This document shows positions 25,011 through 39,376 of a DNA stretch of 64,000 bases, piece after piece (within the stretch, counting starts at the first letter, position 1; each line of letters begins with the position of its first letter). The translations under genes and the position numbers were made by a program. Origin of the DNA: an uncultured Trueperaceae bacterium (GTDB taxonomy: Bacteria > Deinococcota > Deinococci > Deinococcales > Trueperaceae); the NCBI GenBank assembly GCA_963799485.1, contig CAWCXJ010000012.1, positions 96,001 to 160,000 of the forward strand. Reading direction: 5' to 3'. The notes under the pieces were generated by a model that had not been told where the DNA came from, made no database searches, and was given only the letters and a program-made list of their open reading frames with translations.

Positions 25011-25469
25011 AAATCAAGTTTACGCGCCCCTCAGGGTGTGAGGCGTGTTTTGCGCTGTCCCCGGCAGCGGTCGGTATCGTCACCGAACAAGCGGTCGGCG
25101 AGCGCCGTAAGCCCGACACCCAAAGCAGCTTCAACCAAAAACGGAATGTAAGAAATCCTACTCGAGCGGTTTGTTTATACCGCTTTTTTCGTTACGAATA
25201 CCGTTCAGAACGTCTTAACCTTTGTTCTCGCGCACGACCGGGCCGCGCGCGGTCGTGGGAGAATTCACGCGGAAAACCTGCGACCTGTAGTCATGATGAG
25301 TTCAGCGTGTGTACCCGGTCGGCTGTCGGCCCAAAGGTACCAGCAGTCAGGGAGAGGACTACATCATGATGAGAGCTTATTGCGCGCAAGGGGCAGGTTT
25401 GACTACACGGTTCGTGGCGGGAAGGGGCTCGAGGCTCCCCCTCAAGACTCCGGCAAGTTGGGGGTTTTA

Positions 25470-28256
25470 GTGAAATCTTTTGGTGCCGCATTTATTTTGC
25501 TATTTTTGAGCCTATTGGGATTTGCCTTTGCCCAAACACCGGTCAACACGGCAATTCAAAACACGGCGACGGCGACCTACACGAACGCCGCCAATCAGTC
25601 GCTGACGGCAACGTCGAATACCGTTACGACGACGGTTTTGCCGATCTACCGCTTTGAGATTACCCCCAACGGAACCGACGCACCTTTTGTTTCAGGTAGC
25701 GGAACCGGGGCCGGTCAGAGCCAGACAGGTGCAGCGGGCGGTACGGTCGTCTTTACCTATCAGCTCGAGAACCAGGGCAACACGGCGAACAACACCATCA
25801 ACCTCTCAGCCCTCGACTCTGCTACCGACGATTTTCAGTTCGGTACCAAAACGATCTATCTGGACAATCCGACCGCCGGGATTCAGGGCCAACTCGACCC
25901 GCAAGACTCCCCGGTAACCTCGGTGACGCTGCCGTACAACAGCACGCCGGTCACGCTTTTCGTCGAAGCGGCCATTCCCGGTACTGCGGTGGACAACCAG
26001 GTCGGCAGGCTCAACCTCTCAGGCGCTTCAGCTACCGGCGGCGAAACCGATGCGAACAACTGGGCCGAACTCGCCGCGTTTACCAACGCAGCCTTGACCT
26101 TGAACAAAACCGCGACCGGCAACGTGATTCCGGGCGGCACCATCAGCTACACGGTTTCAGGTGCGAATACGGGTGGGACGAACCCCTACGCGGTAACAGG
26201 CGTTGCAAATATCTCCAGCGGGGGCGTCACTGCGCCTCGAGACGGCATCCTTGTTTCGGACGTGATTCCTGCGGGCCTCAGCTACGTACCGGGATCGCTT
26301 ACGTTCTCGGGTTCCAATACGGCGTCTACAACCGTTGTCCTCTACTCGACCAACGGCGGGACGACCTGGGTTACGGCGCAACCAGCGAGCGGCGTCAATG
26401 CGGTTGGGGTCTATATCGGCGGTACTGCCGGTCAACGCGTCTCGACAACGGGCGGCGCGCCGCTCTCCTACAGCTTTACCTTTAATGCAACAGCTCCGGC
26501 AGGCGCAACCGCCGGAACGGTCTATAACAACACCGGTACCATCCGCTACGACAGCAACGGCGACAGCGACGGCGCAGACGCCGGTGAAGTGGTAACGACT
26601 ACGCCCGCACCGACGACCGTCGATCCGTCGGGTACCTTTGCCGTCGGGCCGTACACCTTCCCGACCGCCGGAGCCTCCGGCAGCTACACCGTTACGGGCG
26701 AGGGTTACACCGTCTCCCGCACCGACGACGCCCAGACGATTGCCTCGGCGCCTAACGAACGCGAGGTCAGCTTCCGGCACACGCTGGGGAACGCTACGAA
26801 CTTTGGCGACACCTTTACGCTCAGCAGCACTTTACCCACATCACTCGCCAACAACACGCCTCCCGGTTCAGTGAGCTTTTATGCGGTCAACGGCGACGGC
26901 TCGCGGGGTGCACTCATCACCGCGCCGCTGGCAGTAGCCGCCGGTGCTACCGCAGACTTCTATACGGTCGTAACGTTGCCCGCCGACTATACAAGCGCCA
27001 CACCGCTCGACTTTACCGTCACAGCGACCTCCACCCAGACCGGCAACACCGATACGACGATAGACACCATCAGCGAAGTGACCGAGGCCCAGGCCGTCGA
27101 TATCGGCAACTACGCCGGAAACGGCACGCCGAACAACGCTTCGATCGACTTTCCGGCGCAACCCGGCAGCACCGTCAGCATCCCGCTGATCGTCCGTAAC
27201 AACGGTGCTGACCCCGACACCTTCGGTCTCAGCGCCGTCATCGCGCCGCCCGGTTACACCGTGACCATCTACGGGGATGATAATTGTAACGGACGTATCG
27301 ATGGCCCCGACACAGAAGTCAGCAGCAGCAACGAACTCGAGCCCGGTACCTTCGAGTGCTTTATCCTTCAGGTCACCATCCCTACCGGAGCCGCGCCCGC
27401 GACCTACGACGTCACGGTTACGGCGACGAGCCAAAATGACCCGAATATCAGCGATTTCATCACCGATACCGTCACTGTAGGACTGCTCGAGAACTTTACC
27501 TTTACGCCTACCCCGCAAGCTCAGGCGACCAGCTCGACCGTACCTGTCGTCTACACCCACACGATCACCAATAACTCGAACGAGGTCGCCTCGGTAGACC
27601 TGACCTTTACCGAAGAAGATGCGACGGCTTGGACTTACGAGTACTCACTTACGGGTGCTGACGGCTCCTACACGACTACCTTGCCGACGGGTATCTCGGT
27701 CGCAGCCAACGGCGGCACGCAAGCCATCTACGTCCGGGTAACGCCTGACCCGGCTGCAACCGAGGGCACGACCGACGCTTTTACCCTGACCGCGACGCCG
27801 ACCTACGGCGCAACCACGGGCGCGGCAGCCTCCGTGACCGACACGACCACCATCGACCAGGAGTACTTCGGTCAGCTCGACCTGGACAAAACCGTCAGCG
27901 TCAACGGTGGAACTGCAGGTACGGACAACGACGCCGAACCCGGCGACACCCTGACCTACACCGTTACCGCGACCAACCTCGGGGCGGGTGCGCTCAACAA
28001 TGTTCAGCTTACAGACGCCGTCCCTGCAAACACGACTTTCGTCTCCGCTACGGCGACTGCCGGCGGCGGCCTCGCCGGACAAACGGTGCTTTACTCCACG
28101 AACGGTACGACCTGGAGTACGACGCCGCCTAGTACGCTCGCTACCGGCAGCATCTATGTGGGCGTCAGTACAAACGGCGACAACAACGTCAACGCCAACG
28201 ACAGCTTCCCGGCAGACGGCGTGCTGACCCTGACGCTGGTTGTCACCATCGACTAA
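25470..28256 (+). CDS. Secreted multi-Ig/DUF11 protein A (candidate fibre shaft subunit), 928 aa
   Basis: GTG 25470; signal peptide ending AFA-Q; Thr-rich Ig-like repeats; DUF11 motifs L.KT...PG.T..YT...N.G...D..P. Confidence 0.85.
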   Translation: MKSFGAAFILLFLSLLGFAFAQTPVNTAIQNTATATYTNAANQSLTATSNTVTTTVLPIYRFEITPNGTDAPFVSGSGTGAGQSQTGAAGGTVVFTYQLENQGNTANNTINLSALDSATDDFQFGTKTIYLDNPTAGIQGQLDPQDSPVTSVTLPYNSTPVTLFVEAAIPGTAVDNQVGRLNLSGASATGGETDANNWAELAAFTNAALTLNKTATGNVIPGGTISYTVSGANTGGTNPYAVTGVANISSGGVTAPRDGILVSDVIPAGLSYVPGSLTFSGSNTASTTVVLYSTNGGTTWVTAQPASGVNAVGVYIGGTAGQRVSTTGGAPLSYSFTFNATAPAGATAGTVYNNTGTIRYDSNGDSDGADAGEVVTTTPAPTTVDPSGTFAVGPYTFPTAGASGSYTVTGEGYTVSRTDDAQTIASAPNEREVSFRHTLGNATNFGDTFTLSSTLPTSLANNTPPGSVSFYAVNGDGSRGALITAPLAVAAGATADFYTVVTLPADYTSATPLDFTVTATSTQTGNTDTTIDTISEVTEAQAVDIGNYAGNGTPNNASIDFPAQPGSTVSIPLIVRNNGADPDTFGLSAVIAPPGYTVTIYGDDNCNGRIDGPDTEVSSSNELEPGTFECFILQVTIPTGAAPATYDVTVTATSQNDPNISDFITDTVTVGLLENFTFTPTPQAQATSSTVPVVYTHTITNNSNEVASVDLTFTEEDATAWTYEYSLTGADGSYTTTLPTGISVAANGGTQAIYVRVTPDPAATEGTTDAFTLTATPTYGATTGAAASVTDTTTIDQEYFGQLDLDKTVSVNGGTAGTDNDAEPGDTLTYTVTATNLGAGALNNVQLTDAVPANTTFVSATATAGGGLAGQTVLYSTNGTTWSTTPPSTLATGSIYVGVSTNGDNNVNANDSFPADGVLTLTLVVTID

Positions 28257-28267
28257 GACTCTTTTGG

Positions 28268-28304
28268 GCTGCTCCTCCGGTCGCCAGCGGAGGAGCAGCG
28301 TTTT
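28268..28304 (+). terminator. Intra-operon hairpin/terminator after gene A
   Basis: GCTGCTCCTCCG-N8-CGGAGGAGCAGC-GTTTT (perfect 12-bp stem). Confidence 0.75.
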
Positions 28305-28426
28305 ACCCAAACGCCTACAAGCCCGGTTCAAACACGACGCCCAGCCGAACCCACTCGGCTCTACTGCTCGACCTTAAGTCGTCCGCCTGCTTGGTATCAG
28401 TCGCCGGAGACTGGTGAGGATGAAAC

Positions 28427-31400
28427 GTGAAGTTAATACACAGTTTATTTTTTTTGCTGCTCTTGGGGGGAGCTTTCGCTGCGGGGACGCCTGCCGGAAC
28501 GGAGATTAAAAACCGGGCCGAGGCGACCTACATAAACCCGGATGGTAACGTTCAAACGGTCGCTTCAGACGAGGTTGTTACGACCGTTTTACCCGTTTAT
28601 GATTTCGTCATTTTGCCGAACGGGGCCAGCCCCGACGCGCCCGGTCAGACCGTTACGGCAGTAGCCGGAAGCGCGGCGCAGTTTTTTTATACCGTTACAA
28701 ACCAAGGCAATATAACAGACACCATCACCCTGACGCTCGCTCAAGCCGGGGACGACTTTAATCTGAGCAATGTTCGTATTTATCTGGACGAAGACGGCAA
28801 CGGCGTTTTAGACGCGGGTGAACCGCTCGTGACTGAAGTCCAACTCGGTGCGGGCGAATCCGCCCAGCTTATCGTTATCGGAACCGTGCCGGAGGGCACG
28901 GTGTCCGGGGCAACTGCCAATGTCAACCTCGAGGGTGTTTCAGTCGGGGTTCCGGACAATACCGATACCGACAACTGGGCCAGAGCCGTCCTCGGCAATG
29001 ATAACGGCGGTGGTGGGAACGTTGCGGGCGTCAACATCGGCAACAGCGACGGCGACCCGGACACCGCGCCGAACGACGGGGGCCTTACCGAGTCGGCGCA
29101 ACCCGGCAAAGCGGTGAGTTTCCCGCTCGAGCTAACCAATACCGGCAGCGCACCCGACACCTTCGACCTGAGTATCGTCAACCTGCCCGACGGCTGGACG
29201 GCAGCGCTTTTTGCCGATGCGGATTGCGACGGCGAAGCCGACAACGAAGAACCTGTTACAACGGTAGGGCCGCTCGAGCCCGGTGAAAACATCTGCTTCA
29301 TCCTTACGGTGACGCCCGCAGCGGACGCACAACCCGGTTCGGTGCCGGTTACAGCCACCGCCGTAAGCCAAAGCGACCCTTCAAAACGGGACAGCATCAC
29401 CAACCTCGTCATCATCGGCGATAACGGCGGCGGTCAGGCGGGCGCGGAAATCGTCCTCGAGAAGTCCGTTTCGCCGGCGGGTTCGGTCGTGTCCGGCGCG
29501 ACCCTGACCTATACGGTTACGGCGATCAGTACCGGCGACGCGGCGGCGACAGGCGTCAGCGTGAGCGACCCGTTGCCCGCCAATACCGCGTTCGTTTCGG
29601 CTTCGGCGAGTACGACGCTGGACGGCGCAACCCTTTATTCGGCGGACGGCTCGAGCTGGTCTACTGCGCCCCCGAGCAGCCTAGAGCCCGGGGCGAGCCT
29701 TTACGTCGGCGTCGATACGAACGGCGACGCCACCCTCACGGACGCCGACACTTTCGGGCCGAACGAGACCTTGACCCTGACGCTCACCGTGCAGGTTACG
29801 GGCGGCCCGGAGGTGAGCAATCAGGCTGAGGCAACTTACGGCGACGGCTCGGCCTCGTCGGAAACGGTGACGACACCTGTAGACAACGCTGCGCCGGAAC
29901 CCGAACCCGCCCGCTGCGCCGTCTCGGTCACACCCGACGGCACCGAAGAAGTGCCCGGTCAGCTCGTTCAGGCACTGCCCGGCAGCACCGTCTACCTGCC
30001 CTATACGCTGCAAAATACGACACCGCAAAACATCGCTGAACCGGGTGACGCGGACAGCACCTTTATTCTGAGTGCAGACACGCTTACGGGCGAAGTCGCA
30101 GGTCTCCGGATTATTGCCGACAGCAATGCCGACGGTGTACCGGACGAAGGCGAAGAGGTTGTAAGTCGGCTAGACCTCGCTGAAGGGGAGAGCGCGGCGC
30201 TGCTCTTAGAGGTCACGCTGACCCCAACCCCCGGCACTTACCTCGTCAACCTCGCCGCTAGTTGCGAAGGTGCGGACGAAGACGCCGTAGACTCGAGCGA
30301 TACGGTCAACGTCTCACAGATCGATGTTCCGGCCCTAAACCTGGCAGCCCCCCAAAAAACTGCCGTCCCACCCGCAGGCACGGCGCTCTACGCGGGCGCG
30401 GCGGTGTCTTACGTCGTCACCTTTACCGCGCCGGAACTGCCTCTAGAAAACGTCGTCGTGCGCGACGTTTTAGACCCCAAACTGGCGCTGCCGACGACGT
30501 ATACGACCGGCACCGTCACCGACCCGGCGACCGGACTCAGCACCGAAGCGGTCGCTACCTTAGAGAACCGCACACTGCGCTGGACGTTTACCGAAGTTCC
30601 GGCAGGAATGACCGTGACGTTAGCTATCGAGACGCAAGTCGCCGCTGACGCCGCCGTTACCGAAACCGTGGACAACACCGCGTGCATCGCGGCTTTGAGC
30701 TTGAGCGAAGTGTGCAGCGCCCCGGTCACGCACCCGCTCGCGCCGGTTGAGCTGAGCTTAAGCAAAACCGCGCTCTCGCCGAGTGTCACCGTCGGCGACA
30801 CCTTGACCTACGAACTCGTAGCGACGAACCTTTCAGATGTTGTCCCGGTCACAGAAGGGACGCTGACCGACACCTTGCCGGAGGGTCTCGAGTACCTCCC
30901 GGACAGCGCCGTACGGCTGGACTCGGCGGGAACGACCGAACCCTTTGAACCCACCCAAACAGGTCTCCTCGTCTGGAATCTGCCCGACCTCGCGCCCAGC
31001 ACGTCGCTGACGCTGCGTTTCGATGTCCGCGTGACGGCGGCGGCGCTCGGGCAAGAGACGCTTCTTAACCGCGCCGAGTTCGACGCGCTCGGCAGTGACG
31101 GCGGGGTCGTCGCCTCGCAAGAAGATGAAGCGGCGGTCGCGGTCGAAGCGGGGTTTTTCGTACCCGGAGCGTGCTGCTCGGACACCTTTATATCGACAAG
31201 GACGACAGCGGTGATTTCAACCGAGGCGATAAGCCTGTGAAAGACGCGCGGCTGTATCTCTCCAACGGGCTTTCAGTCGTAACAGACGCGTTCGGACGCT
31301 ACACCGTCACCGATTTACCTGCGGGTCTGCTCGCGCTCCGGCTCGACAGCACGACGACGCGGGGGCTCGAGCCAGCCCGCAACGAACGTACCGCTGCCAA

Positions 31401-34400
31401 AGACGGCCTCTGGCGTGTGCGCTTGCAGCCCGGTCTGCTGACCCGCCAAGACATCGGCTTCGTGCCGCCCCCCGTAAAACCCACAGAAAGTACCGTAAAA
31501 CCGACACCTCAGGCGGCAGAAACGCCGACGCCGAATCTAAATACAGACACGTCAGACCCCGACCTGCCCGAAAGCCCGGTCGAGACCCTGAGCGGCGTCA
31601 ATATCATCGCCCCGGAACCGGGTACCTTGCTCCGGGGCCGGAGCAGCGTCCCGATTGTCGTCGAAACGCCGCTCGGCGACGTGGTGAGCTTGAGCGTCAA
31701 CGGTCAGCTCATCCCTACGTCGCTGCTCGGCAAACGCGTGCTGGACGAAGTGCGGCAGCGGCAGCGCTTTGAATACGCCGGAGTGCGGTTCGAGCCCGGT
31801 GAGAGTGAAATCGTGGTGCAAAGTCAAGCTGCCGGGGGCGCGGTGACCGAAACGCGCGTGACGATTGCCACCGCCGGCCCGCCTGAACGCATCGTAATCA
31901 GGCCGCTTGAAGCATTGACGGCTGACAGTGCCGCGCCGCTGGCGTTTACGCTGCGCCTCGAGGACAAAAACGGTTACGCGCCGCAAGATACATTTGTCAC
32001 CCTTAGCGTTGACAGGGCCGAATTCGCTTCGGAAGATGCGAACAAACGCGCCCTCGGGATGCAGGTTCGCACCCGTGAGGGGCGCGCCCGCTTTACCCTC
32101 AAACCCTTGCCGGTTCCGGCGACGATTGTCGTGCGCGCCGAGTTGGGCGCTTTGGAAAGCAAACAAGATTTTGCGGTACGCTCCGCCAAGCGGCCCTGGA
32201 TTGCGGCGGCGGCGGGCAGCGTCGGCGCGTCGCTCGCGCCCGGTGAGCCGCTGCAAAGTGCCGATTTCGGCGCGTCGGGCACGTTGTTCGCTCGGGGCAG
32301 CGCGTACGGACAATTGTTGACCTTCAGCGTGCGCTATCCGCAGTCGGTTTACGGCGACCCCACGGACCCGTTTAACGTCCTGCCGGGTGACACCCTCGTC
32401 GAACCCGAAGTGATCACCGGTTCGGGCCGCGACCCCACCGCCGAAGCGAGAAGTCGGGACGGCTTTTACGCCCGCGTGGAAAACGACCTCTCCTTCGTTC
32501 AGTACGGCGATTTCGCCACCGACCTGCTCGGGCCGCTCTTGGGCGGTTCCCGCGAGCTGACCGGTTTGAGCGGACGTTACGCCCGTTTCGGCGGCGGCTT
32601 TGAAGCGCGTGCTTACGCCTCGTACCGCCCACAAGGCGAAGAGGTTACCAGCCGCGACGTTCCGTCGAACGGGACGAGCCTTTACCTTTTACCGGCGGGG
32701 CTCGAGTCCTTGGTCGTTTACGCCGTCACCAAAGATGATTTCGGTTCTCTGACAGGCCAAGAAGAGCTGGTGCGGGGCGCGGACTATACCTATACGCCCG
32801 CCACCGGACAGCTCTTGTTAAACGACCCGCTGCCGCTACAAAACAACCTCGGCGACCGCGCCTTTTTACGGCTGAGCTACCGTTTTCCTGCCGACGTGGG
32901 CGCACCGAGAGTGTTAGAAGCCGGAGCCCAAGTAGCTTACGACGCAGGCGACCTCAAACCACGCCTCGGCGCGGCGCAATCCCAAGACGGGGTGAGCACG
33001 GCTCGAGCCGTCTCTGCCGGTATGTGCTTTGAGCGCGACGAGCTGAGCGCTGAAGCCGACGTCGCTTACGGTGGCGATGAGAGCAGCAGCGGTTTTGCAG
33101 CGACCGCGCGGGCGAGTCTCGACAGCGAACAGCTCGACGCCTCGGCAACCTACCGCTACACCGCCCCCGGCTACCGCTCGCCCGCTTTGGGCGTCAGCAG
33201 CAGCGCCGGACACGAGGCGAGTTTCGGCGTGTCGTACAACGTTACCGACGCCCTCAACCTTTCGGCAAGTGGAACGGCGGCGCAGGCGTTACGCGCCACC
33301 GGGCAAGACCTGAACTTCAGCGCCGACGTGCTGGGCCGCTACCGCGTCGGCAGCGAAGCCGCACTCGGGTCGTTCGTGTTGGGCAGCAATCCCGAACTGC
33401 AACTCGGGGCCGAAGTCGATACCAGCCTCAGCGATACCCGGAACGACTGGGTGCCGCGTGCGCTGGCAGGCTTTAGAGTCCAAACACCGCTGGGCCTTTC
33501 CGACGCCGAGCTCAGCGTGTTGCACCGGCAAGGGCTGTTAAGCACGCTCCCCAGCGAGACCGATTTCGGCGTGCGCTACCGCCTTTTGGAGAACCTCTCG
33601 CTAACCGTCACCGAACGCTTGACCTGGGGTATAGAAAGCGACCTGCTGGTGGGCCTCGAGACCGGTTTCGACAACGCCTCACTCTTGGGCGGCACCCGCT
33701 ACCGGGGTCAGACGACCCTCAGCACGCAGTACGAGCTGCCGGGCGGCGTGAGCGCCGACGCGGGCCGCGCCCGTTTGGGCCTGCGGACGCAGTACCCGCT
33801 TAGTAATGCGTGGAGTATCGACGGGTCTTTGGAGCAGCTTCTGGACTTTTCCGACGGTGGCAGCCGCAGCGCCGCCTCGTTCGGGACAACTTACGACACC
33901 GACGATGTAGACGCGCAGGCGAGCTATCAGTTTAGTTTGGCAGACAGTCTGACCCGGCAGCTGCTGAGCGCGGGCAGCAACTTCCGCGTCAACGACCATC
34001 TTTTCGGCGGGGTAAGCGCGCTTTACAGCCTCGAGCTTGGCGGCGCGGACACCGAAGGGTCGCTGCAAGGCTTTTCTTTCAACATTGCCGGTGCCTACCG
34101 GGGCGCTGTTATCGACGTATTGATGAGCCACACCGCGCTGTTCGGTTCGCTCGCGCCCGGCGGCGCAGAGCTGACCGGCGACGTGCGCGCCGCCGTTCCC
34201 CTAACTGACCTGTTCGACCTGCGCGGCTCTTACTTGTACCGCAGCGAAGCTGCGACCGGGCTTCAGGACGTAGCGGCGCTCGGCGTCGGTGTCTATCCGT
34301 GGAACGGTGGCAGCGTTGCCCTGTACGGACAACTGTTTCACCTCTGGACGCCCGGAACGTACCTGCCGGGGGTGAGTCTCGAGGTGTCCCAAGAGGTCTT

Positions 34401-34542
34401 TTGCGGTATTTACGCGGTAGGCGGTTACAACTACGGCGGGCTGACCGATCCGCTCGGGCCGGGGTACGGCGGCGAAGGTTTCTTTATCCGGGTGGATGTA
34501 ATTGCCGACGAGCGGTTTAGTTGCGCGGGGGCAGGGCAGTGA
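28427..34542 (+). CDS. DUF11/Ig repeats + SdrD-B-like domain + outer-membrane beta-barrel-like region (protein B, about 2038 aa; one frameshift near 31160)
   Basis: ORFs 28427-31240 and 31171-34542 join with one added base (EAGFF-x-TRSVLLGHLYIDKDDSG). The C-terminal part is amphipathic beta strands rich in G/Y/S. Confidence 0.75.
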
Positions 34543-37500
34543 ACGGGTTTGTGAAACGCATGGTGCGGACAGTTGTGCTGCTCCCCCTATTTTTCAGCTG
34601 GGGATTTGCACAGACACCGGCCTGTTCGACGCTTTATGGCGGGGGCGTTGCAGCTACGAGTACCAACGCCGGGCCGATTTTTTCGATCAACACGGCGACC
34701 GGGGCCAGAATTTCAAACGTGTTTACGCCACCTTACGGAACTGCCGCATTTGCGCGGAGTCCGGTAAACGGTCGCATTTACTTCATCGAGTATACGAGCG
34801 GCACGACCTCTTCCAGAGTCGGGTATTACGACCCCGCTACCGGAACTACCACCACAGCAGCGGCGACGATCAATAAGGGAACGGATTCAGGACTATTCCT
34901 TCGTTTTGGCTTCAACGCCGATGGGGTAGGTTACGCGTCGATTGCCGACAACAATTCCGTCTATACGATTACCCCTTCGGGCAACACCGCTACGGTTGCG
35001 CGCCTCGGGACGATTACGGGTTTGCCAACAGGTTTAAGCGGCGATTTTGCTATTACTGCCGCAAACCGGGCGTGGCTAAGCGGCAACGGTGAAGTCTACC
35101 GGATCGACCTCAATAAACCTACCTTGCCAGCAGTCGTAATCTACGACTCGAATAATGTCAACATCAACGGGGTCGCGTTCGACACCAACAGCGATCTGTT
35201 GCTTTCCGATACGACGCAGCTTTTTCGCATCGATCCGGGAACCCTGCAAAAGACAACTGTCGGTACGGGCTTTAACATCACGACGCGCAGCGCCGACCTT
35301 GCCAACTGCGTGATTCCGACGCTCGAGCCCAACCTCACCATCATCAAGTCTGTTGCTCCAGCAGGGCCGGTCGCGCCGGGAACGGTGCTGACCTACACCA
35401 TCACCACGACCAATAGCGGGAACGCGGTCGCGGTCAACACGACGTTTCAAGACAGCATTCCGGCAAACACGACCTACGTCGCCGGTTCGACGACCAAGAA
35501 CGGCGTAGCGGAGCCCGACGCTGCAGGTGGCGTCATGCCCTTTGTCACTGCCGCGACGATTACGAGCCCCAGCACGCAGTTCGGGCCGGGGATTGTCGGC
35601 ACCGGCACCGCAAACCAAGCGACTGTAAGCTTTAAGGTCAGGGTCAACAATCCTTTTCCTTCAACTGTAGCAGCAGTAACCAACAGGGGCTTCGTCGAGT
35701 ACGATTCGGGTGCTGGCGATACACGCGTCATTCAGCCCACCACGCCTCCCGGCGGCGGCGATAGCGCGACACCTATCACCATCGGCAACCGCGACTTCGG
35801 TGACGCCCCCGACGCAGCGACCGGCACCGGGACGGGCAACTATCAAACGACCGGCAGCGGACAACGGCCCGAGTCACGCCATCGTTTCGGGTTTACGGCT
35901 CGGCTCGGTTGTCGCCGACGCCGATGACGGCACCTTGCAAAATGTGGGCGCAACAGCTGATAACACGACCGGAACGAACGACGAGGAGGGTGTAAGCAGT
36001 TTCCCGGTCTTTACCACAACGTCCGGACAAACGGTAACCGTGCCGGTAGCAGTCACCAACACGACAAGCGCGGCGGCATCTTTGGTCGGCTATCTCGACT
36101 TTAACAAAGACGGTGACTTTCTAGATACCGGCGAACAGTCGGCGCTTGTACCGGTGGCAGTAAATCAAACGTCGGCCAACGTCGTTTTTACGACCCCTAC
36201 AGGACTCACGGCGGGGACGACCTACGCGCGTTTTCGTATCGGCGGCGTTGCGGGCGAGGTGACGTCATCGGTTGGGGGAGCCTCGAGCGGTGAGGTCGAA
36301 GATTACCGAGTCACAATTGGTTCACCTGATTTGACGATAAGCAAAACGCACACTCCGGCAACTTTTGTGCGGGGCAGGAGCGGTACCTACACCCTGACAG
36401 TCGGTAACATAGCGGCAATCAACCGACCTCCGGAACTATCACCTTGACCGATACCCTGCCCGCAGGCTTAAGCGTCAACGGTGGCGCTACCGGAACGGTG
36501 ACGCCGGGCGGGACGAACGCCGCCAACTGGACGTGTTCTTCAAATGCAGCGTCGCCGCAGGTCATCACCTGCTCGAGTACCACAGTCATAGCAGCGAGTG
36601 GGAGCAGCGTGTTTAATTTGGGCGTCAGCGTGGCCCCCGGTGCCGGAACCCCGGTGGTCAACAACGTAGCAGTGTCCGGTGGGGGCGAGGCAGCGGCAAA
36701 TAACGGGAACAATACAGCGAGCGATTCGGCGGTTACGGTTGCACCGACCGACCTTACGCTTAGCAAATCGCACAGCGGCGACTTTACAGTCGGCGGCGCA
36801 GGAACGTACAACTTTACGGTCAATAACAGCGGCGGGGTCGCGAGTTCCGGCACCATAACCGTGACCGACACGCTACCTACAGGTCTGAGCTTTGTCACCG
36901 GTTCGACGACCGGGACAGGCTGGAGCTGTTCAGCCTCGGGCCAAACCGTCACCTGTACAAGCAGCACGGCAATTGCCGCAGCCGGGAGCAGCACCTTTGC
37001 TTTTAACGTCAACGTCGGCGTAGCCACCGCGCCGGGAACGAACAGCGTGACCAACACAGCGAGCGTTTCAGGTGGCAGCGACAGCAACACGGCAAATAAC
37101 AGCGCTAACAACGGTGAACGGCGACCCGACGACCGTGCTTTCACCTGATCTGACTGTAACCAAATCGCACACACCGAGCAGCTTTGTTCAGGGTGGCGTA
37201 GGGAATTACCGAATCAGGGTGTATAACGACACCGTAAACGCGACGGCCTCGACTACCGGCACGATCACCGTCACCGACACCCTGCCGGTTGGTTTGAGTG
37301 TCCCAGCCGGTGCCGTGACGCTTACGGCGGGCGGGACGGTCTGGAGCTGTACGGCGTCCGGGCAAGTCATCACCTGCAGCTACACGAAACCGATTCCGGT
37401 AGGCAGCGGCAGCATATTCAGGTTTAATGTCAACGTCGCATCACCGGCCCCGGCGAGTGTAACCAATAACGTGACGGTTTCAGGTGGTACTGAGGCGACC

Positions 37501-37920
37501 GCAAACACAGGCAACAACACGGACTCTGACCCGACCACAATCGTTGATGCGGGCAACCTCACGCTCGTTAAAAGCGTCCGTAACGTCACGACGAACTCAG
37601 CGTTTAGCAGCGCCGGGAGCGGGGAACCGGGAGACGTGCTCGAGTACTGCGTCGGCTACAGCAACCCCGGTCAGAGTCCGGTGACGGGTACGGTCGTAAG
37701 CGACAGTATTCCGACAACGACCACGCCGCTCACCTCGGTCGGCGACTACGGCAATCAGGCGATTCGCTGGCGGATAACCCAGCCGAGCGCCGGCACGCAA
37801 AACCTCAGTGCGGTCTCAGGCGACGACGACGGTGAGCTGGGCGCGGTGCTGACGGTGCGGGTCGGCGCGGTTCCGGCGGGCGGCGCAGGCGACGTCTGTT
37901 TTCGGGCGCAGATCAAATAG
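34539..37920 (+). CDS. Secreted adhesin-like protein C (propeller-like N-terminus, DUF11 repeats, GEVED domain; about 1126 aa; three frameshifts)
   Basis: GTGA overlap with the stop of B; signal peptide GFA-Q; DFGDAP...GEVEDY. Four track ORFs join through single-base indels near 35853, 36409 and 37107. Confidence 0.75.
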
Positions 37921-37981: not shown

Positions 37982-39376
37982 ATGTCCGACACAAAAATCC
38001 GCAAACAGATTCAAGACGAACGCGTTCAAGAGCTTAACGATAAGGAGACTCAAGAAGGGGAGTACGTCCTCTACTGGCTGCAAAGTTCGCAGCGGAGCGA
38101 GTACAACCACGCCCTCGAGTACGCCGCTCTCAAGGCCAACGAACTGGACAAACCCCTGCTCGTCGCATTTGGCCTCACCGACGACTACCCCGAAGCAAGC
38201 CTGCGGCACTACCACTTTATGCTGCAAGGCTTGCAAGATGTTGCGAAAGCTTTAGAGAAGCGCAAGGTCAAGTTTGCCCTGCAACGCGGCGCACCCGATG
38301 ATATTGCCGTAAAACTCGCCGAAGACGCGGCGCTGGTCGTGTGTGACCGCGATTATCTGCGGCTTCAGCGCAAATGGCGTGAGCGCCTCGCCAAAAAAGC
38401 GCCGTGCCGGGTCGTGCAGGTCGAAACCAACGTCGTGGTGCCGGTCGAGCTGGCGTCGGGTAAAAAAGAACACGCCGCCCGCACCTTGCGGCCCCGGCTC
38501 AGCAAGCATCTGGACAAATTTCTGATTCCGTTAGACGAGGTAAAGCTTAAAGTAGATTCTCTTGACCTGAACATCAAAGGTGAAGACATCTCCGAGCTCG
38601 ACACGTTTTTGGGGAAACTGACGCTCGAGCCCGACCCCCCGCCCGTCAAACTCTTTAGGGGCGGCACCGAAGCCGCGAAAAAAGTCCTGAGTAATTTTCT
38701 CAAAAACGACTTTGCCGACTATACCGAAACCCGCAATCAGCCGCAGACGAGCCATGTGTCGCACATGAGCAAATATCTGCACTACGGGCAGATTTCGCCG
38801 GTGTATATCGCCCTAGAGGTCGAGTCCGCCGGAGCGTCTAAGGAGAATGTGGACAGCTACCTTGAAGAACTCATCATCCGCCGTGAACTGCCGATGAACT
38901 TTGTGTTTTACGAACCCGACTACGACCAATACCGCGCCCTGCCCGCGTGGGCGCAAAAGAGTCTGGCAGAACATAAAGACGACAAGCGCAACCCTGAGTA
39001 CACCCGCAACGAGCTCGAGGCCGCTGAAACCGACGACCCCTACTGGAACGCCGCCATGAATGAGATGAAGGTTACCGGGTATATGCACAACTATATGCGG
39101 ATGTACTGGGGCAAAAAGATTCTCGAGTGGTCAGCCAGCCCCGAATACGCCTTCGAGACGACGCTTTACCTGAACAACAAGTACTTTTTAGACGGGCGCG
39201 ACGCCAACTCCTACGCCAACGTCGCCTGGGTTTTCGGACAGCACGACCGGGGTTGGAAGGAGCGGGCGGTGTTCGGCAAGGTGCGCTATATGTCGGCGGG
39301 CGGACTGAAACGCAAAGCCGACCCGGACGCGTACGTCGAAAAGGTGGCGGGGTTCATCGAAGAAGCCCGGACCTAA
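37982..39376 (+). CDS. Class II CPD (deoxyribodipyrimidine) photolyase
   Basis: SKYLHYGQIS, EELIIRREL, GYMHNYMRMYWGKKILEW, DGRDAN, FGKVRYM. Confidence 0.9.
   Translation: MSDTKIRKQIQDERVQELNDKETQEGEYVLYWLQSSQRSEYNHALEYAALKANELDKPLLVAFGLTDDYPEASLRHYHFMLQGLQDVAKALEKRKVKFALQRGAPDDIAVKLAEDAALVVCDRDYLRLQRKWRERLAKKAPCRVVQVETNVVVPVELASGKKEHAARTLRPRLSKHLDKFLIPLDEVKLKVDSLDLNIKGEDISELDTFLGKLTLEPDPPPVKLFRGGTEAAKKVLSNFLKNDFADYTETRNQPQTSHVSHMSKYLHYGQISPVYIALEVESAGASKENVDSYLEELIIRRELPMNFVFYEPDYDQYRALPAWAQKSLAEHKDDKRNPEYTRNELEAAETDDPYWNAAMNEMKVTGYMHNYMRMYWGKKILEWSASPEYAFETTLYLNNKYFLDGRDANSYANVAWVFGQHDRGWKERAVFGKVRYMSAGGLKRKADPDAYVEKVAGFIEEART

Follow-up and report, generated by a model that had tools for sequence, protein, structure and literature searches.

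What can be built from secreted proteins whose last domain breaks off two strands early, if other proteins of the same locus appear to begin with exactly such a pair of strands? This question is raised by three co-directional genes, here called A, B (with a barrel) and C, on the + strand of a 64,000-nucleotide stretch of DNA from an uncultured Trueperaceae bacterium (assembly GCA_963799485.1, contig CAWCXJ010000012.1, positions 96,001 to 160,000; hereafter the window, to whose first letter the coordinates refer unless another contig or locus is named). An initial annotation had read A as donor plus acceptor, B as donor plus barrel and C as acceptor only, and the sequences it quoted for the three proteins are present in the window where it had placed them. 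The results described below were obtained in silico, by sequence comparison and structure prediction, and they make it fairly likely that the locus encodes a chaperone-free fibre that is complemented by donor hairpins and probably locked by isopeptide bonds, with B and its barrel as base, A as shaft and C as tip.

Matches to Pfam and NCBIfam in the locus comprise DUF11 (CLIPPER), RrgB-type isopeptide D2, NEW3/CARDB-like, SdrD_B-like and GEVED domains, as well as TIGR01451 (NCBIfam), with PF01345 (DUF11/CLIPPER) scoring 37.4 bits in A, 117.8 in B and 44.4 in the last piece of C at a cut-off of 24.6. A complete DUF11 domain is found inside B (residues 336-487; 29432-29887, +), where it ends ...TLTLTVQV TGGPEVSNQAEATYGDGSASSETVTTPV, closes with VSNQAEATYGDGSASSETVTTPV and holds all three residues of the Lys, Asp and Asn triad. 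The last 127 residues of A align with this domain at 46% identity (E 2e-26), but the alignment ends at position 122 of 152, i. e. A stops 30 residues early, with ...LTLTLVVTID at 28256. The acceptor of A (27837..28253, +) is thus a DUF11/CLIPPER domain without the last two strands, and it carries Lys807 (27888-27890) and Asp849 (28014-28016). A truncated DUF11 domain also forms the acceptor of C (37525..37917, +; Lys at 37570-37572, Asp at 37702-37704), which ends ...VCFRAQIK. When the window was aligned with seven relatives, all 16 C-termini (8 A-type and 8 C-type) ended one residue past the same strand, with the Asp kept in 16/16 and the Lys in 15/16, which bears out the earlier claim that the last domains of A and C stop before the closing strand pair. 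An acceptor profile of 141 positions covers A from 2 to 140, up to residue 927 of 928, and C from 3 to 141, up to its last residue (independent E-value, i-E, 8e-43).

At the other end, the signal peptide of A (ending in AFA) is followed by QTPVNTAIQNTATATY...SNTVTTTV (residues 22-56) and that of B by AGTPAGTEIKNRAEATY...SDEVVTTV, and both mature N-termini share the motif TP.(G/N)T.I.N.A.ATY...S(N/D).V.TTV. Judged by sequence comparison, this motif is the hairpin that the truncated domains are missing. The donor of A comprises two strands within residues 22-62 (25533..25655, +; Asn31 at 25560-25562), as delimited by the homologue alignment and the predicted complex, and that of B was located with a donor profile (28481-28606, +; Asn29 at 28511-28513). 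The profile, built from the N-termini of A homologues with A included, also matches the closing hairpin of the complete domain in B (i-E 0.0014). Among 5158 open reading frames (ORFs) of at least 150 amino acids from the whole genome, it finds only A (i-E 5e-20) and B (i-E 2.3e-17 to 1.7e-14), which argues that the motif is not a chance pattern. None of the four pieces of C gives a donor-profile match below i-E 0.01, and the acceptor profile finds no truncated acceptor at the end of B. Lys and Asp are present in the terminal domains of A and C and the chain ends before the Asn hairpin, so that the triad is not contained within one domain.

The initial annotation had named structure prediction of the C-terminal domain of A with the N-terminus of A as a test, and in the prediction the two pieces indeed come together. 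With A residues 790-928 and A residues 22-64 (43 residues) as input, each with its own alignment, the interaction prediction score from aligned errors (ipSAE) had a median of 0.66 (0.67, 0.66, 0.66), and the best of three controls scored 0.00; in calibration, a score of 0.66 was attained by 116/157 solved complexes and 2/215 mismatched pairs. The three runs have at least 96% of contacts in common, with a predicted local distance difference test (pLDDT) of at least 72 for the partner. Donor segments 29-41 and 47-57 are placed against acceptor strands 799-809 and 840-850, and the predicted contacts include K807 with 33 and 52 and D849 with 33 and 34. According to this model, the donor and acceptor pieces of A form one domain, which does not imply that they meet in trans. 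The good score may also reflect the likeness to 9IFR, a solved complete domain of the family. The AlphaFold2 (AF2) model of full-length A is a string of beta-sandwich domains (mean pLDDT 85.7, predicted template modelling score, pTM, 0.40).

The chemistry that such a reunited domain could perform is known from 9IFR, a CLIPPER domain in which Lys715 and Asn806 are bonded with Asp748 as catalyst, according to the accessible part of the source (PMC12617251). In A, the acceptor provides the equivalent Lys807 and Asp849, and the donor provides Asn31. N31, K807 and D849 are invariant in 24/24 A homologues, whose identity to A goes down to 32%, as are T23, I29, S49, N50 and V56 of the donor; together with the profile and alignment matches at both ends, this upholds the reading of A as donor plus acceptor. 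In loci that lay outside profile building, the Lys is kept in 14/15 acceptors, the acidic residue is Asp in 13/15 and Glu in 1/15, and the Asn is kept in 14/15 donors; those that deviate are a small protein with neither Lys nor Asp and one barrel-fused donor with Ser. Searched against the PDB, the A2 profile matches 9IFR (E 1e-4) and the KdgM porin (E 0.009), and a phmmer search of the PDB with the complete DUF11 domain of B returned nothing at E <= 0.1.

The locus thus probably encodes a self-assembling surface fibre made from a CLIPPER (DUF11) domain cut in two. The acceptor would be the C-terminal domain of A or C, which provides the Lys and the catalytic Asp, and the donor would be the first ~40 mature residues of A or B, which provide the Asn. 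In a first step, the donor hairpin of one chain would complete the acceptor of another, in line with the in silico data, and a Lys-Asn isopeptide bond could then form as in ordinary CLIPPER domains, as suggested by the conserved triad. Copies of A joined head to tail would make up the shaft, and B would serve as base, for it is joined to a giant outer-membrane barrel here and neighbours the barrel gene in other genera. C, with a variable N-terminal head and no donor, would sit at the tip for these two reasons. The C-terminus of every subunit would point toward the cell, and assembly would need no chaperone, usher or sortase.

The survey of homologous operons that had been proposed along with this model shows the donor/acceptor pattern to be kept across several phyla: it recurs in Trueperaceae, Thermus, Meiothermus and Deinococcus-like genomes as well as in Armatimonadota, Gemmatimonadota and Latescibacterota. 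Three types of protein are found: one with both donor and acceptor, one with the donor only and linked to a barrel of ~40 strands, and one with the acceptor only, behind an adhesin head. The A-type architecture is present in 7/7 first relatives, in 7/18 further loci from a barrel search, eight of which are short contigs, and in 3/3 Thermaceae/Deinococcus-type loci picked from a phylum search. The further loci include those of Armatimonadota (L022) and Latescibacterota (L027) and, with unclear frame, of Gemmatimonadaceae (L023), and the A-types of L023 and L027 are shorter (545-654 codons). In every operon read, B-types have the donor without a terminal acceptor and C-types the acceptor without a donor. 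By analogy, such a three-type set is the grammar of polymerising pili. In Thermus thermophilus HB8, the operon lies unbroken on pTT27 and comprises a small protein, A, B, barrel and C (TTH_RS10905, TTH_RS10910, TTH_RS11750, TTH_RS10920 and TTH_RS10925). The co-occurrence of A and barrel, counted over 201 Deinococcota genomes (A profile 144, barrel 151, both 143), was set aside, because both profiles hold DUF11-type parts, many A-profile matches cover only 7-517 (B-types) and the genomes are kin.

The assignment of C to the tip fits the variable, adhesin-type heads of C-types, which differ even within the genus: the C of one same-genus genome (G005) carries CshA_NR2 (E 5e-49) and that of another (G039) DUF3344. 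From sequence, it looks like the binding module of the tip has been swapped between genomes of the same genus. The CshA_NR2 domain of G005 is located in the first 576 residues of C, and these residues are unmatched in the window (34600-35330 compared with L001:11635-13360). For the head of C in the window, there are only weak beta-propeller-like leads below 0.9 in the atlas (DUF4394/DUF6923).

A basal position of B agrees with its link to the barrel: in all operons examined, the barrel is either fused to a donor or encoded next to one. The B part proper (28427..31159, +) encodes a signal peptide, the donor and Ig-like domains including the complete DUF11 domain, as recognised by Pfam/NCBIfam, and is followed by a frame of 1123 codons (31171..34542, +) with an SdrD_B-like domain (residues 1-100), two Ig-like domains (140-338) and ~40 long strands (340-1113; 32188-34509) in the AF2 model (pLDDT 84.0, pTM 0.75). 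Pfam/NCBIfam place no family on the last ~800 residues of this frame. With VIA-align, the closest structure to the strand region is the 30-strand SlpA of D. radiodurans (7zgx_A; Z 12.8 over 425 aligned residues, root-mean-square deviation, rmsd, 9.9), and porins also match it. FimD fits no better than SlpA or porins (Z 12.3, rmsd 15.4, 359 residues aligned), and the likeness of the modelled barrel to this usher is that of any large barrel. Foldseek against the PDB gave low TM-scores (<=0.17 on the query), with matches including SprA, LptD and MtrB, and in the atlas the barrel is nearest to generic 'outer membrane protein' clusters (0.96). Its family comprises 761 representatives at E <= 1e-3 and 465 at E <= 1e-10, counted as clusters at 50% identity, and the names on its members include metagenome-assembled genomes of Gemmatimonadota and Spirochaetales. 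In nearly all cases, the match makes up the C-terminal part of a protein 1100-2700 residues long, and the donor profile matches the start of at least 45 of the best 150 representatives, a lower bound since the profile misses short donors of the Deinococcus type.

B and barrel are encoded by two adjoining genes in Thermaceae and some Trueperaceae, where the separate B ends in a stretch that matches residues 1-100 of the window's barrel frame. Such a B ends DP.VRWRYP in three cases and DPYLRWRLP in one (L002:15553-17160, L003:14340-17078, L007:3073-5910, L028:4640-7345), and the barrel protein then has a signal peptide of its own, followed by a domain LPLV(T/S)(V/A)G...W...(Y/F)SP..D. The C-terminal motif of B and the domain at the start of the barrel may represent the contact between base subunit and barrel.

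The initial annotation had found no sortase, chaperone or usher gene in the locus, and by family search this holds for the whole genome: PapD_N (PF00345), Usher (PF00577) and Sortase (PF04203) have 0 matches in the 99.99%-complete genome, with control genomes positive (E. coli for PF00345), and Pfam finds no PapD chaperone family in the locus itself. Neither A (...LVVTID) nor C (...FRAQIK) ends in an LPXTG motif or a hydrophobic tail. The barrel may itself be the translocon, in which case the absence of an usher would be true by family name only; by position, it is a candidate export route for A and C.

A further component may be a small secreted single-domain protein of ~135 mature residues, encoded on another contig of the same genome (C6, 251826-252332, +; = L032:142-633). 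It ends in a truncated DUF11-like domain that the acceptor profile matches to the last residue (i-E 5.5e-9). Homologues were found at L015:3237-3851, L016:3083-3688 and L031:2363-2857. In T. thermophilus HB8 and two Trueperaceae genomes, the homologue lies directly upstream of A, and TTH_RS10905 is 32% identical to the C6 protein over 74 residues (E 2e-7). The small protein has neither the Lys nor the Asp, and it could hold or cap donor hairpins without a covalent bond. Only tentatively can the pattern be generalised to an enzyme-free class of pili that is spread over many two-membrane phyla, T. thermophilus HB8 included, with an inter-chain Lys-Asn lock in a split CLIPPER domain, the barrel as translocon and anchor, and the small Lys/Asp-less acceptor-like protein perhaps as the said holder or cap.

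Several observations weigh against a covalently locked fibre, and some of them lend themselves to other readings. BLASTP gives no alignment of the 41-residue donor to the complete domain of B, a profile search of two loci (L012 and L013) finds no ORF with both a donor and a terminal acceptor, and the crossing of the outer membrane by A and C is left without explanation. Moreover, the predicted complex of A is compatible with cis and trans pairing alike. As both halves reside within A, its hairpin could in principle complete its own C-terminal domain, to give a closed ring or self-capped monomer, and only the orphan pieces (B donor with C acceptor, or B-A-C) would pair in trans. What would result is an adhesin stalk of one to three proteins, anchored by the barrel, rather than a long polymer. 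The N-terminal strands in the full-length model of A (pLDDT 79-88) are indeed packed on something. Yet, the next domain follows directly on the last donor strand (V56 to F62), and closure in cis would probably have to bend about six beta-sandwich domains into a ring, which would be even harder for the A-types of 545-654 codons (L023, L027). The set of donor-plus-acceptor, donor-only and acceptor-only proteins also follows the logic of polymerising pili, and an acceptor whose own chain has no donor, as in C, needs another chain or stays open, which favours pairing in trans and makes closure in cis unlikely. It is quite improbable that strands are complemented without a covalent bond, as in chaperone-usher or TasA fibres, and that Lys, Asp and Asn are structural only. 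Such a reading would accommodate the C6 protein, a truncated domain without Lys and Asp, which may either be stable alone or be complemented without a bond, and the barrel-fused donor of the Latescibacterota locus L027 (L027:5636-12988), which has Ser for Asn, so that the base joint may be non-covalent in this lineage. In addition, oligomers of the N35A mutant of BsaA were still resistant to sodium dodecyl sulfate (SDS) without heating, as the accessible text of PMC11580942 has it. On the other hand, the triad is invariant in the 24 A homologues, and the same three residues make the bond in solved 9IFR (Lys715, Asp748, Asn806; PMC12617251, as far as this source was available). A view without any complementation, with the N-terminal segment as a barrel-targeting signal in the style of two-partner secretion, the truncated domain as a sorting or anchoring module and A, B and C as separate adhesins, would account for the position of the segment directly behind the signal peptide in all members and for its co-occurrence with the barrel. 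It is nonetheless very improbable: the segment corresponds to the closing strand pair of the DUF11 domains that are complete in the same proteins, A and C are cut exactly where this pair would begin, donor and acceptor are predicted to fold together as a single domain with controls at 0.00, and C-types lack the segment yet belong to the same operons.

The state of the genes in the window raises a separate doubt about the fibre, as B/barrel contains one frameshift and C three. Relative to the same-genus genome G005, in which A, B/barrel and C are single open frames of 936, 2742 and 2223 codons, a single base is shifted between B and barrel (31153..31159, +; GGGG-TTTTT here, GGGGATTTT in G005). 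Gene C, which encodes a signal peptide, the head, DUF11, GEVED, DUF11-type repeats and the acceptor, is read in four frames (34521-35927, 35710-36447, 36444-37148 and 37072-37920, +), with single-base shifts near 35857-35909, 36408-36414 and 37082-37127. Hence, of the original assignments, the donor of B stands, and B is one frame with the barrel only if the shift is read through; in C, the acceptor and the lack of a donor stand. It is a serious possibility, if short of an even chance, that the frameshifts are real and the window copy is a decaying pseudogene cluster with only A intact, whatever the mechanism elsewhere. Four single-base indels within ~6 kb of B/barrel and C would fit such decay, as would the match of all 16 other scanned window ORFs to their families without splitting (e. 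g. citrate synthase, 1-357 of 357). Against it, each broken frame reads on cleanly, with no in-frame stops and 64-84% identity to the G005 proteins (intact A: 67%), and one of the shifts sits at a G4/T5 junction; assembly errors in a gene rich in repeats and variable between strains explain the shifts equally well. The public contig run X1 holds 16% of sampled words, and its 8 pieces span none of the four sites. Given the frameshifts in B/barrel and C, the fibre is perhaps not produced in this genome. The start of A was set at GTG 25470, where 24 homologues begin with a signal peptide. The longest ORF reaches 59 codons further upstream to an ATG (25293-25469), and this extension is probably not translated, since it is absent from the homologues and the signal peptide begins at 25470.

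How such a fibre would relate to known systems can be considered at the level of the domain and of the mechanism. CLIPPER/DUF11 domains are of the same family, have the same order of Lys, Asp and Asn and occur as tandem Ig-like stalks of secreted surface proteins. In those of known fibrillar adhesins, the bond lies within one chain according to the available text of PMC12617251, in which the word 'split' has 0 occurrences, whereas the terminal domain in the present locus ends short of the Asn hairpin, which is found at the N-terminus of other chains. In chaperone-usher pili (Fim, Pap), the N-terminal extension of the next subunit completes an incomplete Ig-like fold, the tip adhesin is acceptor-only, the terminator donor-only and an outer-membrane barrel sits at the base, as described in the accessible part of PMC11821415. 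In the proposed fibre, all four traits would have a counterpart. In contrast to these pili, the PapD chaperone and Usher families are missing, the donor is a two-strand hairpin, the subunits are multi-domain proteins of ~900 residues, the base subunit is fused to a barrel of ~40 strands, and a covalent lock is probable.

A conserved Asn donor and an acceptor with Lys and an acidic residue are shared with donor-strand fibres locked by isopeptide bonds, which is a likeness in mechanism class and not in sequence family. In the threads of the archaeon Sulfolobus acidocaldarius, subunits are complemented by donor strands and linked to each other by isopeptide bonds, and an assembly enzyme is not known, as far as the available text of PMC9715654 goes. 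The archaeon has no outer membrane and the threads no barrel anchor, their subunits are small and single-domain, and that part of the source reports no DUF11 match. For BsaA of Clostridium perfringens (TasA family), the accessible portion of PMC11580942 describes a 'donor-strand exchange and lock', in which an N-terminal segment enters the sheet of the neighbour and an acid-catalysed Asn-Lys bond forms, with an N-E-K triad conserved in >100 homologues. BsaA differs in fold family, in its Gram-positive host, in its single strand, in Glu instead of Asp and in its SipW/T4P (type IV pilus)-associated secretion, and it has neither a barrel nor distinct subunits for tip and base. New donor-strand pili are still being described, for example the Pam pili of bacteria of the candidate phyla radiation (CPR; PMC13278184, available in part). 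The features that distinguish the present case are the CLIPPER fold, the two-strand donor, the ~900-residue subunits, the diderm host and the giant barrel tied to the base subunit. Classical autotransporters (type Va) have the order of passenger and then barrel in common with B, but no Autotransporter family of Pfam matches, and the model has ~40 strands over ~770 residues instead of the 12 strands of a type Va barrel. SpyTag/SpyCatcher is an engineered split of the CnaB2 isopeptide domain, in which a small piece and a catcher reconstitute the domain and bond spontaneously. Compared with this man-made CnaB pair, the split would here be natural, occur in a CnaA-like domain and be used for polymerising.

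The literature search, with subscription journals outside its coverage and with Thermus locus tags that may be wrong, found no description of a split DUF11 domain or of such a fibre in diderm bacteria. One match for 'Thermus + DUF11' was rejected as a prefix match to DUF1109. If the proposed fibre is real, it would be a type of diderm pilus that needs no chaperone, usher, sortase or ATPase, and it would give a function to the large family of giant 'DUF11 plus barrel' genes (761 representative clusters). The locus also has a bearing on the passage of folded proteins to the cell surface in Deinococcota, with their unusual outer membranes. As the operon is present on pTT27 of T. thermophilus HB8, a direct test is possible in a tractable and harmless thermophile, and the split domains could furnish natural, thermostable Tag/Catcher-like pairs for protein engineering.

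Some minor features of the locus complete the picture. The scan for promoter and terminator consensus sites found them no commoner than in shuffles, and it does not list a GC-rich hairpin at 28269..28298 (+), as it requires 5 T. This hairpin starts 13 bases past the stop of A and has a perfect 11-pair stem with a loop of 8 bases; GTTTT follows, and the structure is present in the centroid as well as the minimum free energy (MFE) fold. A possible role is that of a partial terminator, which would shift the subunit ratio in favour of the shaft over base and tip. A loop of the form D.NCDG..D occurs in the NEW3/CARDB-like domains of A (~27170-27260, residues ~570-600) and B (~29160-29220). The A-family profile gives a weak PDB match at a dockerin calcium loop (5m2s_B, E 0.099), and the loop in A and B may be a calcium site. 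Finally, a gene for a class-II-like DNA photolyase (37982-39376) begins 62 bases after C, an order that is the same in G005.

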